DNA of 5,126 nucleotides. Origin: a virus. Taxonomy: Duplodnaviria > Heunggongvirae > Uroviricota > Caudoviricetes. Both the position numbers and the translations under genes were made by a program. Shown here piece after piece: positions 1 through 5,126 of this stretch (positions are counted from its first letter, which is position 1; each line of letters begins with the position of its first letter). Where the stretch lies: positions 1 through 5,126 of IMG/VR virus record IMGVR_UViG_2778261416_000005; one strand, written 5' to 3'. A model generated the notes under the pieces. It ran no database searches. It had not been told where the DNA came from and saw nothing but the letters and a program-made list of their open reading frames with translations.

Positions 1-708
1 TTACCAACTATGAGACGACCAGAATACTCTGCCAATAATCCTTACGGTTTCATGAAATTCATCTCTATCCATTACTTCATCCGGGTACTCTTCGCGATTT
101 ATTGATCTGATTATCACCGATGTAGGGGTGGCGATTAATGTTTTTACTCGTAACAAATCAGACTGGCAAATAGCGTAGGTTTTACCATCTCTGATTGTGG
201 TATCTTGCGTGTTAACACCAACAACATCGCCATCGTGAAGCGTTGGTTCCATGCTTTGCCCTACAACCCTAACTAGCTTGGCTGATCTTTCTGATACTCC
301 CATCTTTTTCAGATAGTGCTTTCTGAAAACCAAAGAGAACTCCGATGATTCCTCTAGCTCGCAGCTACCGCTTCCAGCTGAAAGCGAAACGTTAAGAAGA
401 GGCAACGCAACAAACTCGTCATCGTTTCTTTTAATGTCTTCCCATACCACAGCTTTTAAAGATGACTCACGGACATTGGATGGTTCTTCATGTGCACCAT
501 CCCTCATTTCACCAATACCAGAACTAAGCCATTCAGGGCGCACTTTTAAAGCATTGGCTAATTCAACCATCTTGCGAGATCCGTTTGTTTTACCGGACGA
601 CATCTTCTGTATGGCTGGCTGAGATATTCCAACCATGTCAGCAAGCTGTGATTGTGATACCCCTGCCGAGCTCATGGCTGCATTTAGTCTTTCTGCGAAT
701 GTTTTCAT
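1..708 (-). CDS. cI-like prophage repressor (N-terminal HTH, C-terminal S24/LexA-type autopeptidase domain)
   Basis: Translation shows an HTH segment (QSQLADMVGISQPAIQKM), a putative Ala-Gly cleavage site (LSAGSG), and S24 catalytic motifs (Ser in GQSMEP, Lys in RVKTL). Stop codon is at 1-3. The track ORF 1..738 begins with TTG; the first ATG is at 706-708 and a GTG at 712-714. The ATG start is preferred because the upstream operator palindromes begin at 721. Confidence 0.85.
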   Translation of the reverse strand: MKTFAERLNAAMSSAGVSQSQLADMVGISQPAIQKMSSGKTNGSRKMVELANALKVRPEWLSSGIGEMRDGAHEEPSNVRESSLKAVVWEDIKRNDDEFVALPLLNVSLSAGSGSCELEESSEFSLVFRKHYLKKMGVSERSAKLVRVVGQSMEPTLHDGDVVGVNTQDTTIRDGKTYAICQSDLLRVKTLIATPTSVIIRSINREEYPDEVMDRDEFHETVRIIGRVFWSSHSW

Positions 709-720
709 ACCCACAAATCT

Positions 721-783
721 ATAACTACGGTTATCCAAAGTAAAATAACAAAGGTTATTGCTATTTTTTATAACTTGAGTTAT
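721..783. promoter_or_regulatory. Tripartite operator array (OR-like) in the divergent cI/cro promoter region
   Basis: Three 14-bp sites with perfect inverted half-sites ATAAC-N4-GTTAT at 721-734, 745-758 and 770-783, centres 24 and 25 bp apart. They lie between the divergent repressor and cro-like genes. A possible PR -10 (TATAAG, 791-796) and an SD (AAGAGG, 807-812) precede the cro ATG. Confidence 0.55.
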
Positions 784-819
784 CTTTGGTTATAAGTAAT
801 GACCACAAGAGGTATGCTC

Positions 820-1044
820 ATGAATTTAGTAATTCAACGAGCCTTGAAAATTGTCGGTAGCCAAAAGCGCCTTGCCGACAAGTGTGGTGTAACGCAGCCA
901 GCAGTACACAAATGGCTGAAAGGCGGGTTGGTCTCTCCAGAGAAAGTTACCGCCATCGTTAACGCCACTGGAGGGCAGATCAAGGCTTACGAAATTCGCC
1001 CCGATTTGCCACACCTGTTTCCAAAACCGAATCAGGCAGCATAA
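820..1044 (+). CDS. Cro-like HTH regulator (Cro/YdaS-type small DNA-binding protein)
   Basis: A 74-aa ORF divergent from the repressor. SD AAGAGG at 807-812 sits 7 nt before ATG 820; in-frame ATGs at 799 and 814 lack a usable SD. Small basic protein with an HTH-like segment (GVTQPAVHKWLKGG). Stop TAA at 1042-1044. Confidence 0.75.
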   Translation: MNLVIQRALKIVGSQKRLADKCGVTQPAVHKWLKGGLVSPEKVTAIVNATGGQIKAYEIRPDLPHLFPKPNQAA

Positions 1045-1051
1045 GTAACAC

Positions 1052-1097
1052 CGCTCTTTAACAGTCATGGTCTTCATTCCCGCCGAAATGCGGGAAT
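1052..1097 (+). promoter_or_regulatory. nutR-like site: boxA (CGCTCTTTA) plus boxB-like hairpin
   Basis: boxA-like CGCTCTTTA at 1052-1060 follows the cro stop. An 8-bp perfect stem ATTCCCGC/GCGGGAAT (1076-1083 with 1090-1097) encloses a CGAAAT loop, which is GNRA-like. Position between cro and cII matches lambdoid nutR. Confidence 0.5.
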
Positions 1098-1102
1098 ACA
1101 AC

Positions 1103-1137
1103 GCGCATAAGTTGATGCGCATAACTTCTTATTTGTT
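1103..1137 (+). terminator. Candidate tR1-like hairpin upstream of cII
   Basis: Perfect 6-bp stem GCGCAT/ATGCGC (1103-1108 with 1115-1120) followed by a T-rich but interrupted tract ATAACTTCTTATTTGTT. Weak as an intrinsic terminator; lambda tR1 is Rho-dependent. Confidence 0.25.
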
Positions 1138-1180
1138 AAGGAAATACTTACATATGGTTCGTGCAAACAAACGCAACGAG
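1137..1180 (-). promoter_or_regulatory. PRE-like CII-activated promoter (TTGC-N6-TTGC boxes inside the cII 5' end)
   Basis: On the minus strand, TTGCGTTTGTTTGC lies at 1163-1176 (codons 3-8 of cII) and AAGTAT is the -10 at 1144-1149. This matches the lambda PRE architecture as I recall it. Confidence 0.6.
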
Positions 1181-1447
1181 GCTCTACGAATCGAGAGTGC
1201 GTTGCTTAACAAAATCGCAATGCTTGGAACTGAGAAGACAGCGGAAGCTGTGGGAGTTGATAAGTCGCAGATCAGCAGGTGGAAGAGGGACTGGATTCCA
1301 AAGTTCTCAATGCTGCTTGCTGTTCTTGAATGGGGTGTCGTTGACGACGACATGGCTCGATTAGCACGACAAGTTGCTTCGATTCTCACCAATAAAAAAC
1401 GCCCGGCGGCAACCGAGCGTTCTGATCAAATACAAATGGAATTTTAA
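1154..1447 (+). CDS. cII: CII transcriptional activator, near-identical to phage lambda CII
   Basis: A 97-aa protein MVRANKRNEALRIESALLNKIAMLGTEKTAEAVGVDKSQISRWKRDWIPKFSMLLAVLEWGVVDDDMARLARQVASILTNKKRPAATERSDQIQMEF, matching lambda CII from memory with about two substitutions. The upstream sequence TAAGGAAATACTTACAT ATG is also lambda-like. The track ORF 1067..1447 is an unsupported upstream extension. Confidence 0.92.
   Translation: MVRANKRNEALRIESALLNKIAMLGTEKTAEAVGVDKSQISRWKRDWIPKFSMLLAVLEWGVVDDDMARLARQVASILTNKKRPAATERSDQIQMEF
1391..1420 (-). terminator. Intrinsic terminator of the oop-like RNA
   Basis: On the minus strand, a 7-bp stem CGCUCGG/CCGGGCG (one G-U pair) with a 6-nt loop is followed by UUUUUUAUU (plus-strand A-tract at 1391-1399). 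Confidence 0.6.
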
Positions 1448-1458
1448 CAACATCCAAC
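1391..1458 (-). ncRNA. oop: oop-like antisense RNA overlapping the cII 3' end
   Basis: The minus strand reads ...CAGAACGCTCGGTTGCCGCCGGGCGTTTTTTATT, matching the 3' half of lambda OOP RNA as recalled. A perfect TATAAT -10 on the minus strand at 1465-1470 overlaps the next gene's start codon, as pO does in lambda. The 5' end is approximate. Confidence 0.55.
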
Positions 1459-1469
1459 GAGGTAATTAT

Positions 1470-1661
1470 ATGCGAAACAAAGGCTTTAATCCACCTGATA
1501 CACACAAAGAAGCTAAGCGTTTGCGCTTCCTTCGTTCCATTGATGAAAGAACTCAAATCTCTTTTGTGAAAGTTGCCAGAACTGAGCTTCTTAAGGCTGA
1601 GGCGAGGGCGTTGCTCCCGTCTCTATCCGCACAACGCAGATGGACGGTCTGTTGGCAATGA
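1470..1661 (+). CDS. Hypothetical protein (63 aa) at the position normally occupied by replication gene O
   Basis: SD GAGG at 1459-1462 sits 7 nt before ATG 1470, just after the cII stop. No family recognised. The track ORF 1374..1661 is the same frame extended upstream into cII. May be the N-terminal part of a frameshifted gene continuing in the 1573..1914 frame. Confidence 0.45.
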
Positions 1662-1914
1662 AGCAAATGGTAATTATCGATGGTACGACTACTGCAATAA
1701 CCCCGTCGATGCATGGCCGATTATTGATGACAACGAAATAGCGTTAATCCCATCAAACGACTTTGGTTGGGTTGCTATAAGTGGTTTGATGTTAAATGGC
1801 TGTTCTTCGTACATTGATCAACGTCTTGATGGTTGTTTTCAGCATAGTGATACAAACCCACTCCGCGCCGCCATGATCGTATTTCTCATGATGCAGGACG
1901 CCAATAATGCTTAG
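1573..1914 (+). CDS. Hypothetical protein, start unresolved (open frame without an ATG until 1789; possible frameshifted gene or pseudogene)
   Basis: Long open frame with protein-like composition (…[42 protein letters not shown]…). It opens with TTG and has no SD. An ATG at 1658 overlaps the stop of the preceding ORF (ATGA) but is in a third frame that closes at 1741. By position this could be a YbcN/NinE-type nin protein, but I cannot confirm it. Confidence 0.3.
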
Positions 1915-2083
1915 CCCATCCCAATCCATTCAATACCAGAAAGAAAGCGTCGAGCGGGCTTTAACGTGCGCTAACTGCGGTCAGAAGCTGCATGTGCTGG
2001 AAGTTCACGTGTGTGAGCACTGCTGCGCAGAACTGATGAGCGATCCGAATAGCTCAATGTACGAGGAAGAAGACGATGAATGA
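1907..2083 (+). CDS. ninF: NinF-like small Cys-rich (zinc-ribbon-like) nin-region protein, 58 aa
   Basis: Manual translation gives [58 protein letters not shown], with CxxC and CxxHCC motifs and an acidic tail. SD CAGGA lies 8 nt before the ATG. The start overlaps the upstream stop (ATG 1907, TAG 1912-1914) and the stop overlaps the antirepressor start by 8 nt. Absent from the ORF track because of length. NinF assignment is from memory of the lambda nin region. Confidence 0.6.
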
Positions 2084-2798
2084 GTTAATAAATGGCAATG
2101 CCATCAAAATGACAAGCATTGAAATCGCTGAGTTGGTGGGTAAGCGTCATGACAATGTGAAACGTACCATCGAAACGCTGGCTAAAAATGGTGTTATCCG
2201 GCTTCCTCAAATTGAGGTTTCCGAAAGAATCAATAACTTAGGGTTCAATGTTCAGTACGAGCATTACGTCTTCGAAGGCGAACAAGGTAAGCGAGATAGT
2301 ATTGTTGTTGTTGCCCAGTTGTCGCCAGAGTTCACCGCTCGCCTTGTTGACCGCTGGCGAGATCTTGAAGAAGCTGCGGTTAATATCCCCAAAACGCTAC
2401 CGGAAGCGTTGCGCCTTGCTGCTGATCTTGCTGAGCAGAAAATGCAACTGGAAAACCAGCTTGCAATTGCCGCACCTAAAGTTGAGTTTGCCGATCGCGT
2501 TGGCGAGGCCAGCGGAATTTTGATTGGAAACTTTGCAAAGGTTGTCGGTATTGGTCCAAACAAACTGTTTGCGTGGATGCGCGATCACAAAATCCTTATT
2601 GCTTCAGGTTCCCGGCGCAATGTGCCAATGCAGGAATATATGGATCGCGGCTATTTCACAGTGAAAGAAACAGCGGTCAACACAAATCACGGAATACAGA
2701 TATCGTTCACCACAAAAATCACCGGGCGTGGTCAACAGTGGCTGACCAGAAAGCTGCTCGATAACGGAATGCTGAAAGTAACAGGGGAGGCTGCTTAA
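2076..2798 (+). CDS. Phage regulatory protein Rha with C-terminal KilAC/ANT antirepressor domain
   Basis: A 240-aa ORF. The N-terminus (MTSIEIAELVGKRHDNVKRTIETLAKNG … LVDRW) fits the Rha domain. The C-terminus (FADRVGEASGILIGNFAKVVGIGPNKLFAWMRDHKILI … QEYMDRGYFTVKE) fits the KilAC/ANT domain. SD GAGGA lies 8 nt before ATG 2076. Confidence 0.88.
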   Translation: MNELINGNAIKMTSIEIAELVGKRHDNVKRTIETLAKNGVIRLPQIEVSERINNLGFNVQYEHYVFEGEQGKRDSIVVVAQLSPEFTARLVDRWRDLEEAAVNIPKTLPEALRLAADLAEQKMQLENQLAIAAPKVEFADRVGEASGILIGNFAKVVGIGPNKLFAWMRDHKILIASGSRRNVPMQEYMDRGYFTVKETAVNTNHGIQISFTTKITGRGQQWLTRKLLDNGMLKVTGEAA

Positions 2799-3088
2799 TG
2801 GCTAATCTACGCAAAGAAGCACGCGGCAGAGAATGCCAGGTACGTATTTACGGCGTATGCAATGGTAATCCTGAAACTACAGTTCTGGCACATTACCGGA
2901 TGGCTGGAATTTGCGGAACGGGAATGAAGCCTGACGACCTGATCGGCGCATGGGCTTGTAGCGCGTGTCACGATGAAATCGACCGACGCACCCATAATCT
3001 CGACAACAAAGACGCCAGACTTTACCACCTCGAAGGCGTGATCAGGACGCAGGCGATACTACTGAAGGAGGGGAAGATTAAGCCATGA
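2798..3088 (+). CDS. ybcO: YbcO-like DUF1364 protein (Cys/His-rich putative nuclease of lambdoid nin regions)
   Basis: A 96-aa ORF, MANLRKEARGRECQVRIYGVCNGNPETTVLAHYR…CSACHDEIDRRTH, resembling DLP12 YbcO as recalled. SD GGGGAGG lies 7 nt upstream; TAATG overlap with the antirepressor stop. Confidence 0.85.
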   Translation: MANLRKEARGRECQVRIYGVCNGNPETTVLAHYRMAGICGTGMKPDDLIGAWACSACHDEIDRRTHNLDNKDARLYHLEGVIRTQAILLKEGKIKP

Positions 3089-3447
3089 ACGAATATCAGT
3101 TTGTGCTTCCATACCCGCCGTCGGTGAATACCTACTGGCGAAGACGGGGAAGCCAATACTACATCAGCGATAAAGGCCAGAAATACCGAAAAGACGTTCA
3201 GCAAATCATCCGCCAACTTAAGTTAGACATTTTCACCAAATCACGACTCCGCATCAAAGTAATCGCAGACGTTCCGGACTCCCGCCGCCGCGACCTCGAC
3301 AACATCCTGAAAGGTTTACTCGACTCCCTTATCCACGCCGGATTTGCGGAAGACGACGAGCAATTCGATGACATTCGCGTAATTCGTGGTGTGAAAGTAC
3401 CAGGTGGAAGGCTTGGAATAAAAATCACCGAACTGGAGAACGCATGA
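3085..3447 (+). CDS. rusA: RusA Holliday junction resolvase (crossover junction endodeoxyribonuclease)
   Basis: A 120-aa ORF with RusA hallmarks (LPYPPSVNTYW…, PDSRRRDLDNILKGLLDSL…, GGRLGIKITE). SD AAGGAGGGG upstream; ATGA overlap with the ybcO stop. Confidence 0.9.
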   Translation: MNEYQFVLPYPPSVNTYWRRRGSQYYISDKGQKYRKDVQQIIRQLKLDIFTKSRLRIKVIADVPDSRRRDLDNILKGLLDSLIHAGFAEDDEQFDDIRVIRGVKVPGGRLGIKITELENA

Positions 3448-3632
3448 ACGCCACAATTCAAACGATACCAGAGCTTCTTATCCAGACACGAGGCAATCAG
3501 ACCGAAGTGGCAAGGATGCTTTCCTGCGCAAGAGGAACAGTGCTCAAGTACAACCGAGACAGCAAAGGCGAGCGTCACGTAATAGTTAACGGCGTCCTGA
3601 TGGTCAAACAGGGCAAAAGGGGAAGGCCATGA
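3444..3632 (+). CDS. ninH: NinH-like protein
   Basis: A 62-aa ORF, TIPELLIQTRGNQTEVARMLSCARGTVLKYNRDSKGERHVIVNGVLMV, matching lambda NinH (TIPDMLVEAYGNQTEVARRLKCSRGTVRKY…). ATGA overlap with the rusA stop. Confidence 0.85.
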   Translation: MNATIQTIPELLIQTRGNQTEVARMLSCARGTVLKYNRDSKGERHVIVNGVLMVKQGKRGRP

Positions 3633-3802
3633 GACTCGAAAGCGTAGCTAAATTTCATTCGCCAAAAAGCCCGATGATGAGCGACTCACCACGGGCTACG
3701 GCTTCTGACTCTCTTTCCGGTACTGATGTGATGGCTGCTATGGGGATGGCGCAATCACAAGCCGGATTCGGAATGGCTGCATTCTGCGGTACAGGGACAT
3801 AA
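3629..3802 (+). pseudogene. Q: Truncated late antiterminator Q (lambda-type N-terminal ~53 codons only)
   Basis: Manual translation from ATG 3629 (ATGA overlap with the ninH stop) gives MRLESVAKFHSPKSPMMSDSPRATASDSLSGTDVMAAMGMAQSQAGFGMAAFCG, then TGT and stop. This matches the lambda Q N-terminus as recalled, which continues KHELSQ… after FCG. Homology ends at about 3790. Confidence 0.75.
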
Positions 3803-3882
3803 AGATACAGGCCATTACCATCGAGAAGGCGGTATGGTTTTTCTTTCGGCTTTGCTGCTTCAATCTGCTTAACGGTGAGCAT
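3790..3882 (-). pseudogene. Integrase N-terminal fragment (P4/IntS-type arm-binding region, ~31 codons) truncated at a deletion junction
   Basis: Minus-strand translation from ATG 3882 gives MLTVKQIEAAKPKEKPYRLLDGNGLYLYVPV, a typical N-terminus of tRNA-associated P4-family integrases. Beyond about 3790 the reading frame is antisense Q sequence (…PQNAAIPNPACDC…). The track ORF 3655..3918 is this chimera with a GTG-start extension. Confidence 0.65.
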
Positions 3883-4043
3883 GGGTAAAAATCCGGTGGG
3901 TAAAATTATTTTATCCACTTTTTACCCGTCATGGAGTGCGGCTGTCAACGATCTGACGCGAACCATTACGAACTGTGAATCTACGGAAGTCTTGATATTC
4001 AGGGGATTTTGCGGACTGGTACGGATGGGAGCGAACTGATAAA

Positions 4044-4118
4044 TGGTGTCCCCTGCAGGAATCGAACCTGCAATTAGCCCTTAGGAGGGGCTCGTTATAT
4101 CCATTTAACTAAGAGGAC
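4044..4118 (-). tRNA. argW: tRNA-Arg (anticodon CCU)
   Basis: The 75-nt minus-strand sequence GTCCTCTTAGTTAAATGGATATAACGAGCCCCTCCTAAGGGCTAATTGCAGGTTCGATTCCTGCAGGGGACACCA has a 7-bp acceptor stem, an anticodon loop CUCCUAA and a terminal CCA. It matches E. coli argW as recalled. Confidence 0.95.
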
Positions 4119-4193
4119 AATGCGGCATGAGTATACCCGCTAATGGAGTGCGGGGTAAGTACGCTGCCGCTCGATTGCTTAAACCCTCGCCAT

Positions 4194-5126
4194 TTATGCC
4201 GGGTTTTTATAATTTTTCTTAATGTTTTCCGCACGTTCTGCTTTTTGGCGTGCTTCTGCTTTACGCTTATTGCTCATGTCGTTACGAATCTGTGCATGAC
4301 TCATTAACGCGAAGATAAAGGTGCCGCCGCAGATGTTCCCCGCTAAAGTAGGTAGTGCGAAGGGCCAGATGAAATCGCTCCAGTGCAGCGTACCGTTAAA
4401 CACCAGATAGAGGATTTCAACAGAACCGACCACGATATGGGTGGTGTCACCCAGGGCAATAAGCCAGGTCATCAATATAATCACCACAATCTTTGCCGCA
4501 CCCGCTGCAGGAAACATCCAAACCATAGTGGCGATCAGCCAGCCGGAAATGATCGCGTTGGCAAACATCTCGCTGGGGGTGTTCTTCATCACATCCATGC
4601 CGATTTTGACAAATGCATCGCGAGTTTCTTCATTGAAGATAGGCATATATTCAAATGCCCACGCCGCAATACCTGTCCCGAGAATATTACCCAGCAGCAC
4701 GACGCCCCATAACCGTATAAGTAAGCCGACGTTGCTCATTGTCGGTTTTTGCATGACGGGTAGTACCGCAGTCACGGTATTTTCGGTAAATAATTGCTGG
4801 CGGGCCATAATGACGATAATAAAACCAAAGGTATAACCGAGATTCTCCAGCAAGAAGCTGCCCGGCACACCTTCCAGTTCGACTTGAAATATCCCTTTTG
4901 CCAGTAACGAAGCGCCCATCGACAGACCCGCCGCAATGGCTGACCACAGTAGCGCCATTGCGTCGCGTTCCAGCTCTTTTTCACCATCCTGGCGGATATG
5001 CTCATGAATTGCCATCGCCCGGGAGGGGAGTCGGTCTTCATCTATTTCTATTTTTTTGCCGCGCTCTTTTTCTTCGCTCTCAACTTCAATTTCGTCGCTG
5101 TGTTGATCAATTTTGTCGTTGTCCAT
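4194..5126 (-). CDS. yfdC: Formate/nitrite transporter (FNT) family inner-membrane protein YfdC
   Basis: A 310-aa ORF with multiple hydrophobic transmembrane segments and acidic/basic termini, consistent with E. coli YfdC, which neighbours argW. The ATG sits exactly at the window end (5124-5126); stop at 4194-4196. Confidence 0.9.
   Translation of the reverse strand: MDNDKIDQHSDEIEVESEEKERGKKIEIDEDRLPSRAMAIHEHIRQDGEKELERDAMALLWSAIAAGLSMGASLLAKGIFQVELEGVPGSFLLENLGYTFGFIIVIMARQQLFTENTVTAVLPVMQKPTMSNVGLLIRLWGVVLLGNILGTGIAAWAFEYMPIFNEETRDAFVKIGMDVMKNTPSEMFANAIISGWLIATMVWMFPAAGAAKIVVIILMTWLIALGDTTHIVVGSVEILYLVFNGTLHWSDFIWPFALPTLAGNICGGTFIFALMSHAQIRNDMSNKRKAEARQKAERAENIKKNYKNPA

Follow-up and report, generated by a model that had tools for sequence, protein, structure and literature searches.

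Genes of the window and its two deletion junctions

The window, that is, the whole stretch of DNA analyzed here (5,126 nucleotides; positions 1 to 5,126 of IMG/VR record IMGVR_UViG_2778261416_000005), carries a prophage remnant beside argW; this remnant has lost its replication genes and the greater part of Q, and no late genes lie in the window. Its features are as follows.

1–708, minus strand: CI-type repressor (HTH and S24 peptidase), intact (ORF list; the program-made ORF begins farther out, with a TTG at 738)
820–1044, plus strand: cro-like gene (its position matches an annotated "transcriptional regulator" in prophage locus L001)
1154–1447, plus strand: cII, intact, 97 aa (Pfam Phage_CII, E 5e-48)
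1470–1625, plus strand: 5' part of a 90-aa gene found after cII in related prophages (PHROG 2519, profile positions 1–59 of 90)
1624–1914, plus strand: ninX', N-terminally truncated (Pfam Phage_P22_NinX, profile positions 36–114 of 114 only)
1907–2083, plus strand: ninF, 58 aa (Pfam NinF, E 1.8e-12)
2076–2798, plus strand: roi, 240 aa (Pfam; PHROG 63, E 4e-99)
2228–2240, plus strand: AATCAATAACTTA, the sole exact match to the IHF consensus (WATCAANNNNTTR) in the window, within the variable patch of roi
2798–3088, plus strand: ybcO/hkbD, 96 aa, DUF1364 (PF07102), a putative nuclease (Pfam YbcO, E 1.8e-44)
3085–3447, plus strand: rusA, Holliday-junction resolvase, 120 aa (Pfam RusA, PF05866, E 1.1e-16)
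3444–3632, plus strand: ninH, 62 aa, a small DNA-binding protein of the Fis-like kind (Pfam Phage_NinH, E 2e-24, profile positions 1–60 of 60)
3629–3791, plus strand: Q', codons 1–54 of an antiterminator gene that is 207 codons long when complete (Pfam Antiterm, PF03589, profile positions 1–33 of 87 only)
3787–3918, minus strand: intS', roughly codons 1–44 of the integrase associated with argW (99.3% identity from 3787 on; weak Arm-DNA-bind_3 match)
4044–4118, minus strand: argW, tRNA-Arg (CCT) (ARAGORN; Rfam tRNA, 63.4 bits)
4194–5126, minus strand: yfdC, formate/nitrite transporter family, host gene (annotation beneath the E. coli genome matches)

Positions 1–1443 share 99% DNA identity with a prophage of E. 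coli strain 222, in which the repressor is a 235-aa XRE-family regulator; against NCBIfam, the repressor of the window gave weak matches alone, to the DicA, RstR and LexA models. The names that an earlier note on this DNA had given to YbcO, RusA, NinH and a truncated Q were each recovered by Pfam. YbcO, for instance, matches its model over the full length (150.1 bits against a cut-off of 29.9) and the YbcO of DLP12 (PDB 3g27) with an E-value of 2.6e-40, and RusA aligns over its full length with E. coli RusA (PDB 1q8r; phmmer E 2.8e-26). The RRRDLDN and DD acidic motifs, which we take to be the catalytic residues of RusA, are kept, in keeping with the resolvase that the same note had seen in this gene. 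The NinH of lambda has been described as a Fis mimic (PMC7166090). An Rfam scan of the window returned tRNA as the sole RNA family, and none of the five proteins tried matched the PADLOC defence-system models.

The genes from ninX' to Q' lie between two deletion junctions, a setting that the earlier note had missed. At the first (1624/1625), 2 bp are common to both sides. Homology of the 90-aa gene to loci L005, L009, and L011 stops at 1625, beyond which its ORF, no longer in its own context, ends at 1661, and Megablast matches to ninX-bearing prophages start at 1624; the replication genes, ninB, dam, and ninE, present in intact order in L009 and L011, are absent at this point. At the second (3787–3791), codon 54 of Q is fused to the intS fragment beside argW, with 5 bp common to both sides. 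Phage and prophage homology stops at 3791, the Q' ORF continues through foreign DNA until it ends at 3802, and from 3787 onward the DNA is 99.3% identical to the intS-argW-yfdC region of many E. coli genomes. Full-length Q has 207 aa in loci L001 to L012, so that only 54 of 207 codons are left. These two junctions are what is specific to the present window. Since the deletions took the replication genes and everything past codon 54 of Q, the remnant cannot drive a lytic cycle.

The four genes roi, ybcO, rusA, and ninH are nevertheless intact while the genes flanking them are truncated on both sides, and the block differs from intact prophages at about 1 base in 1851 (99.946% identity to L007, L008, and L010). 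This could mean that the four genes are kept by selection for a benefit to the host, for example by supplying a spare resolvase in the manner of DLP12 rusA, or by controlling other prophages. However, a very recent deletion gives equal near-identity, as it leaves no time for decay, and with a CI-type gene that looks intact, repression of the block is probable. Neither junction is spanned by any of 5,426 complete E. coli genomes or found in GTDB representatives, and so the remnant is not a form that is both widespread and maintained. A look-up of the exact Q' fusion protein returned no match either, and the window may derive from a Shigella or from a draft Escherichia genome. Selection for host benefit is very unlikely, and the block in the present window is instead a relic left after two deletions.

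Overlapping genes from ninX' to Q'

Reading and recomputation of the sequence place the roi/ybcO junction at a TAATG (2796–2800; 1-nt overlap) and the next three at ATGA overlaps, at 3085–3088 (ybcO/rusA), 3444–3447 (rusA/ninH), and 3629–3632 (ninH/Q'). In the ORF list, roi, ybcO, rusA, ninH, and Q' have lengths of 240, 96, 120, 62, and 57 aa, at the coordinates that had been assigned to them before (the figure for Q' includes the foreign codons). The earlier note had described five genes joined by overlaps of 1 to 4 nt, and the four overlaps lie exactly where it put them. Its statement that roi heads the operon does not hold, as roi is the third gene of the run (ninX', ninF, roi, and so on) and the coupling starts before 2076. 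In this upstream extension, ninX' and ninF overlap by 8 nt (CAATAATGCTTAG; ninF start at 1907, ninX' stop at 1914), and ninF and roi by a further 8 nt (ATGAATGA, 2076–2083). Successive overlaps along the single-strand run from ninX' to Q' are therefore 8, 8, 1, 4, 4, and 4 nt. Four of the five starts have, 5 to 13 nt upstream and inside the preceding gene, 4 nt or more that resemble a Shine-Dalgarno sequence; by this simple test none precedes Q'. As each start is within 1 to 8 nt of the preceding stop, passage of ribosomes is possible, and we infer from the overlaps that ribosomes may pass from gene to gene along the run from roi to Q'.

No sigma-70-like site was found on the plus strand between 700 and 4200, and no LexA box in the whole window, even with 1 mismatch allowed. 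A transcription start at roi from a promoter of its own is accordingly unsupported. Terminator-like matches in the region numbered 6, with 4.1 expected, which is not above chance; for this reason a hairpin at 2498–2514, considered as an internal terminator, was rejected. The genes thus fit the pattern of a translationally coupled operon: along a single strand their starts overlap the preceding stops, and neither a promoter-like site nor a terminator above chance separates them. The run at 2076–3632 looks like the distal portion of the delayed-early transcript from pR, on the basis of established lambdoid biology and of the annotation of HK620, in which tR2 lies upstream of ninB and pR' only after Q. 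In intact relatives, the block would have no promoter of its own and would be read as the tail of this transcript once the repressor is gone and N antiterminates.

The arrangement is common. The roi start was found by pattern in 68 of 80 IMG/VR loci, and in all 68 the 240-aa gene is followed by a 96-aa gene with a 1-nt overlap; the whole chain (240-96-120-62-Q, with overlaps of 1, 4, 4, and 4 nt) is present in 52 of these 68. The same coordinates recur in eight of eight genomic places, and the same order, lengths, and overlaps are seen in HK022, HK620, and the prophages of strains 222 and Nord122. The recurrence of the overlaps across the IMG/VR loci indicates that the arrangement is conserved and not due to chance. 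A comparison of synteny, which the earlier note had called for, finds the order ninF-roi-ybcO-rusA-ninH-Q in the phages HK022, HK97, HK620, Kapi1, and Gally as well as in E. coli prophages by the hundreds. Wherever gene lengths and overlaps were read or computed in these copies, they did not differ.

Identity and probable role of Roi

Domain searches were the check on which the Rha/KilAC reading of the 240-aa protein had been made to depend, and since both domains exceed the curated Pfam cut-offs, this reading stands. The ANT/KilAC model (PF03374) matches residues 126–228 with 113.5 bits against a cut-off of 25.3 (E 7.7e-33, profile positions 1–106 of 108), and the Phage_pRha model (PF09669) matches residues 12–99 with 35.2 bits against 29.9 (E 1.9e-8, profile positions 1–91 of 91), a match that is marginal but full-length. 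The protein is laid out as an N-terminal Rha-type winged helix, a helical linker, and an ANT/KilAC domain at the C-terminus. It is 100% identical to a protein of HK140, 99% identical to HK620 Roi, and 88% identical to HK022 Roi, and 801 blocks of the public collection list exactly this sequence. Similarity over the full length, together with the position of the gene between ninF and DUF1364-rusA-ninH-Q, places it in the orthologue group of Roi; judged by these features of its sequence, the 240-aa protein is Roi, as named and annotated in HK022, HK97, and HK620. It is thus not the accessory gene of mostly uncharacterized targets that had been supposed, since the orthologue in HK022 has been characterized, reportedly as a DNA-binding protein that acts with IHF; the roi-encoded protein is described as implicated in lytic growth (PMC3430580, citing Clerget & Boccard 1996). 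No NCBIfam family matched Roi, and its sequence gave no match in the PDB at E ≤ 1.

An AlphaFold2 model of Roi, made from an alignment of 27 sequences, has a mean pLDDT of 45 and is usable at residues 11–80 only, as the aligned sequences hardly vary in the KilAC domain. Residues 11–80 (pLDDT 68–85) are modeled as strand-helix-helix-hairpin. A Foldseek search of the PDB with the model returned nothing at E ≤ 0.001; the top matches, winged helices of TFE/TFIIE, had E-values of 0.2–0.3 and are not significant. Roi of the window differs from its HK022 counterpart chiefly in residues 22–63, a patch with about 55% DNA identity and a one-codon difference in length, whereas residues 64–240 (177 residues) are identical apart from at most two substitutions, one of them at 96. 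The KilAC part is nearly invariant across the Roi alleles, of which the search for related loci gave only the present one (98–100%), the others being drawn from four Stx phages. In the model, the variable patch maps to a helix (25–37) and a hairpin (45–67). As the differences sit on the predicted recognition helix and wing, the DNA site of the present allele may differ from that of HK022.

The IHF-consensus match at 2228–2240 lies in this patch. By chance, 0.26 matches are expected across the window, and at least one occurred in 47 of 200 shuffles of the window. The consensus is found at the same codons in HK022 and in a third allele and is lost in a fourth, and is thus kept in three of four alleles, a count confounded with conservation of the INNLG peptide. 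Repeats near the match are limited to short, weak pairs. HK022 Roi reportedly binds DNA inside its own gene, next to a site for IHF (the report is that of Clerget & Boccard 1996, J Bacteriol 178:4077), and is said to inhibit lytic growth in IHF mutants. With 88% identity and 177 near-identical C-terminal residues, Roi of the window likely acts as HK022 Roi does, and it is most likely a DNA-binding regulator of the kind reported there.

One could go further and regard roi as a self-contained specificity cassette, in which a patch of about 130 bp encodes both the recognition helix and the wing and also carries the IHF site and perhaps the site bound by Roi itself, all exchanged together between phages. 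Were this so, an intact Roi in a remnant without Q and replication genes could act in trans on co-resident prophages with the same roi allele. We consider this a speculative and improbable extension.

The earlier note called the gene antirepressor-type, and "anti-repressor Ant" is indeed the label of PHROG 63 and of RefSeq. Taken as a function, this would have Roi inactivate a CI-type repressor, either that of its own prophage, thereby reinforcing the commitment to lysis, or that of another, heteroimmune prophage in the same cell (cross-talk), in the manner of P22 Ant, P1 Ant1, and the Gifsy antirepressors. The strong ANT/KilAC match is consistent with it, and trans-acting antirepressors that coordinate prophages are reported (PMC3121763). 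However, the name reflects transfer from a domain and not an assay on Roi, and the characterized orthologue, HK022 Roi, is reported as a DNA-binding protein; our literature search found no published evidence of repressor binding by Roi. "Antirepressor-type" is thus a domain label only. The placement of the gene bears on the matter as well. Functional antirepressors (P22 Ant, P1 Ant1, Gifsy GfoA/GftA, N15 AntC) have a promoter of their own and separate control (LexA, Mnt/Arc, or antisense RNA), outside the repressor-controlled early operon. On the other hand, roi lies deep in the pR operon, preceded by neither a promoter-like site nor a LexA box, and its start overlaps ninF by 8 nt. Roi would therefore be made after its own repressor is inactive, and could not start the induction of its own prophage. 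This location inside a repressor-controlled operon argues against a classical antirepressor role, which we regard as unlikely.

A dual role like that of Listeria AriS, in which the Rha domain acts on phage genes and the KilAC domain, probably by way of RecA, dampens the SOS response of the host, is slightly less likely again. The ANT/KilAC domain of AriS alone blocks transcription of SOS genes (Azulay et al. 2022, PMC9043618), and AntA/B, Bro-N, and pRha domains are swapped at the N-terminus of AriS-like proteins (PMC9043618), of which the pRha-KilAC composition of Roi would be one form. A near-invariant KilAC domain across Roi alleles is what would be expected if it were aimed at a conserved host target. 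Yet the effect is known from Firmicutes only and with overexpressed proteins, AriS at its native level did not inhibit SOS (PMC9043618), and the KilAC domain of Roi is only about 30–40% identical, over partial alignments, to the listed proteins of Streptococcus and Staphylococcus phages. AriS itself (AntA/B and ANT/KilAC; PMC9043618) is distant in sequence and differs from Roi in its N-terminal domain.

We therefore hold it very probable that 2076–3632 is the promoter-distal nin half (roi, ybcO/hkbD, rusA, ninH, and the start of Q) of a lambdoid prophage of the HK620/HK140/HK022 type, with Roi as an IHF-assisted DNA-binding regulator. The alignments to HK140, HK620, and HK022 that identify the module are far from borderline. 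Roi would bind inside its own gene next to the IHF site and modulate lytic growth, and is probably not a protein that sequesters the repressor. YbcO and RusA would process DNA junctions in place of lambda Rap, and NinH would be a small Fis-like DNA bender. Relative to the earlier interpretation, the domains and gene names stand, while the position of roi as operon head, its standing as an anonymous gene, and the antirepressor label do not, and the deletions around the block are added.

Comparison with known phages and prophages

The roi-ybcO-rusA-ninH-Q block is already known: gene order, overlaps, and the name given to the first gene can be read from the GenBank records of HK022, HK97, HK620, and HK140, and from hundreds of prophages. 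The value of the present analysis is corrective, as "antirepressor" on a very common enterobacterial protein is an annotation transferred from a domain. The mechanism of Roi has been little studied since 1996, which makes it a modest question for the family as a whole and not one specific to this window.

In lambda, ninF-ninG(rap)-ninH-ninI-Q occupies the same operon position, all eight junctions from ninB to Q overlap (by 4 to 34 nt), such tight overlap being usual in nin regions, and ninF, ninH, and Q belong to homologous families. As the earlier note had said, the slot between ninF and ninH is that of ninG/rap: lambda has Rap (NinG) where the window has roi, ybcO, and rusA, and the lambda NinI phosphatase, in the interval between ninH and Q, is absent from the window. 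In DLP12, the cryptic prophage of K-12 (PDB 3G27, 1Q8R), homologous ybcO and rusA are likewise adjacent in a defective lambdoid prophage, although their proteins have diverged from those of the window. No roi is known to lie immediately upstream of the pair in DLP12. HK022 (AF069308; roi is HK022_65) has the same slot, ninF-roi-gp66-rusA-ninH-Q, with the same overlaps. Close relatives are HK620 (AF335538) and HK140 (JQ086370), as well as Kapi1, N7, Gally, CUS-3, HK97, mEpX1, and mEpX2, with 94–99% DNA identity over 1848–3791. In phages of the HK620 type, a complete Q is followed by pR', qut, and the lysis genes, whereas in the window Q ends at codon 54, fused to intS'.

Identity and arrangement of the nin module

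The five-gene block roi-ybcO-rusA-ninH-Q' is a well-known module of phages of the HK022/HK620 type, the Roi-RusA nin module, and lies here in a deletion remnant. A Pfam search of its 240-aa protein recovered both of the domains ascribed to it in the earlier note, namely ANT/KilAC (E 7.7e-33, 113.5 bits, cut-off 25.3) and Phage_pRha (E 1.9e-8, 35.2 bits, cut-off 29.9). The other gene calls were equally correct by Pfam: YbcO (96 aa, E 1.8e-44), RusA (120 aa, E 1.1e-16), NinH (62 aa, E 2e-24), and the antiterminator Q (Antiterm), of which the 57-aa product covers only profile positions 1-33 of 87. YbcO matches PDB 3g27; the alignment of RusA to PDB 1q8r is full-length and shows its acidic motifs intact. 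In a megablast search of 1848-3802 against phage records, the block was found at 94-99% identity in, among others, HK140, HK620, Kapi1, N7, Gally (97%), HK633, mEpX1, mEpX2, HK542, HK022, HK97, and CUS-3, several of which label the 240-aa gene "roi: DNA-binding protein Roi". Judged by identity to HK140 (100%), HK620 Roi (99%), and HK022 Roi (88%), the protein is thus not anonymous but is named Roi in phage records. A public protein collection lists the identical sequence in 801 blocks, and more than 7,000 relatives were found at E <= 1e-5. Among these, the entries P0001, P0002 (304 aa), P0006, and P0007 (294 aa) have a Roi N-terminus longer by about 64 residues, or combine KilAC with a NinB domain; errors in gene calling or recombinant prophages probably account for them.

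Genes of the block and ninF (block genes from the ORF list; ninF with computed overlaps)
1907-2083, + strand: ninF
2076-2798, + strand: roi, 240-aa ORF
2798-3088, + strand: ybcO, 96-aa ORF
3085-3447, + strand: rusA, 120-aa ORF
3444-3632, + strand: ninH, 62-aa ORF
3629-3802, + strand: Q' (truncated antiterminator gene), 57-aa ORF

The start/stop overlaps claimed for the block (TAATG at 2796-2800; ATGA at 3085, 3444, and 3629) were confirmed by reading the sequence and by recomputation. In a simple test, four of the five starts were preceded, within the upstream gene, by a run of 4 nt or more resembling a Shine-Dalgarno sequence, and none was found upstream of the Q' start. Upstream, ninF overlaps roi by 8 nt (ATGAATGA), as does the N-terminally truncated ninX' with ninF (8 nt, computed). 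The coupled run therefore comprises seven genes, and roi does not head it, as had been proposed, but stands third, after ninX' and ninF. Overlaps of this kind are unremarkable among nin regions, lambda included, in which each of the eight gene junctions between ninB and Q is an overlap, of 4-34 nt.

The order proposed for the block was found again in HK022 and HK620 (ninF-roi-gp66/hkbD-rus-ninH-Q, with the gene lengths and overlaps of the window), and its relative coordinates are identical in 8/8 genomic places. Among 80 fetched IMG/VR loci, a roi start was detected by pattern in 68, in every one of which the 240-aa gene shares 1 nt with a following 96-aa gene; 52 of these have the complete series 240-96-120-62-Q (overlaps of 1, 4, 4, and 4 nt), with three Q alleles (207, 172, and 162 aa). 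This arrangement is conserved and not due to chance. On sequence comparison, modules appear to be exchanged at gene boundaries where start and stop codons overlap. Among the 80 loci, the ninH/Q ATGA junction is kept although Q comes in three alleles, and in six the 96-aa ybcO is followed by a gene of 131 or 174 aa in place of the 120-aa rusA.

Remnant of a prophage beside argW

The gene order of the window is cI (-), cro, cII, a truncated 90-aa gene, ninX', ninF, roi, ybcO, rusA, ninH, Q', intS' (-), argW (-), and yfdC (-), with no late genes after Q'. Homology to intact prophages places an internal deletion at 1624/1625 (within 1470-1914), with 2 bp common to both sides, which links the truncated 90-aa gene 3' of cII (PHROG 2519) to the N-terminally truncated ninX; O and P-type replication genes, ninB, dam, and ninE have been lost relative to those prophages. 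At the second junction, 3787-3791 (within 3629-3918; 5 bp common to both sides), Q is cut after codon 54 and abuts, in the opposite orientation, the initial ~44 codons of intS, the integrase gene associated with argW. Among complete E. coli genomes (5,426) and GTDB representative genomes, none contained either junction, and an exact-protein look-up gave no match for the Q' fusion product. The roi-ninH DNA is 99.9% identical to that of intact prophages; either the deletions are recent or the block has been conserved. Domestication of the intact block, inseparable here from recent deletion, is very improbable.

Transcription of roi and its proposed functions

A scan of the + strand in 700-4200 gave no sigma-70-like site, and the window has no LexA box, even allowing one mismatch; in the HK620 annotation tR2 precedes ninB and pR' comes only downstream of Q. 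Taken with what is established for lambdoid phages, these observations place roi-ninH most likely in the delayed-early pR transcript, produced only once the repressor is inactive. This placement argues against a classical antirepressor acting on the phage's own repressor, as roi would be expressed after its target had ceased to act; that Roi is a true antirepressor, a reading whose sole basis is the domain name, is accordingly unlikely. Known antirepressors (P22 Ant, Gifsy, N15) have their own promoters and are separately controlled. Between cro and cII, 1052-1096 looks like a nutR site; it holds a boxA-like CGCTCTTTA (1052-1060) and a 7-bp hairpin, TTCCCGC-CGAAAT-GCGGGAA (1077-1096). Antisense to the cII 3' end is a strong terminator-like hairpin (1396-1423, minus strand; 12 pairs, then a T run), at the position of the oop RNA terminator in lambda; it matched no Rfam family.

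In macrophages, the LF82 prophage Gally produces antisense transcripts spanning Q to roi, and roi and rha levels are unchanged (PMC9928086). Roi might modulate the SOS response like AriS, a Listeria phage protein with an ANT/KilAC domain: in Listeria, this KilAC domain by itself suffices to block the expression of SOS genes, and the AriS family has interchangeable N-terminal domains, pRha among them (PMC9043618). This evidence comes from distant proteins, overexpressed, and such a role for Roi is unlikely.

Roi alleles and comparison with lambda

In a 27-sequence alignment, nearly all variation in Roi falls in two patches: residues 22-63 (2139-2264; at least five alleles) and a two-state patch (residues ~99-131, about 2370-2468) in the helical linker. 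Residues 134-240 (KilAC) hardly vary among the copies from E. coli, Salmonella, and Stx phages. The AlphaFold2 model is usable only for residues 11-80 (pLDDT 68-85) and unreliable beyond them (mean pLDDT 45). In its strand-helix-helix-hairpin fold the patch at residues 22-63 falls on helix 25-37 and on hairpin 45-67, predicted to be the recognition helix and the wing, which fits an N-terminal winged helix whose specificity varies by allele; Foldseek with this model returned nothing significant. A 1996 study reportedly found HK022 Roi to be a helix-turn-helix DNA-binding protein that binds inside its own gene, adjoining an IHF site. The window has one exact match to the IHF consensus (2228-2240, AATCAATAACTTA). 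It is inside roi, recurs at the corresponding codons of the HK022 allele and of a third allele despite divergence of the surrounding 130 bp, and is lost in a fourth. As a candidate IHF site it is only suggestive, because the peptide INNLG encoded there is itself conserved and at least one match anywhere in the window arose in 47 of 200 shuffles. A citation in PMC3430580 implicates HK022 Roi, the only characterised orthologue, in lytic growth of the phage.

The lambda order is ninF-ninG(rap)-ninH-ninI-Q, so the slot between ninF and ninH does hold ninG, as the earlier note stated, and its view of RusA as the supplier of the resolvase here is likewise correct. Lambda has a ninI between ninH and Q, whereas the module in the window has none. 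NinH of lambda is a characterised Fis-like DNA-bending protein (PMC7166090).
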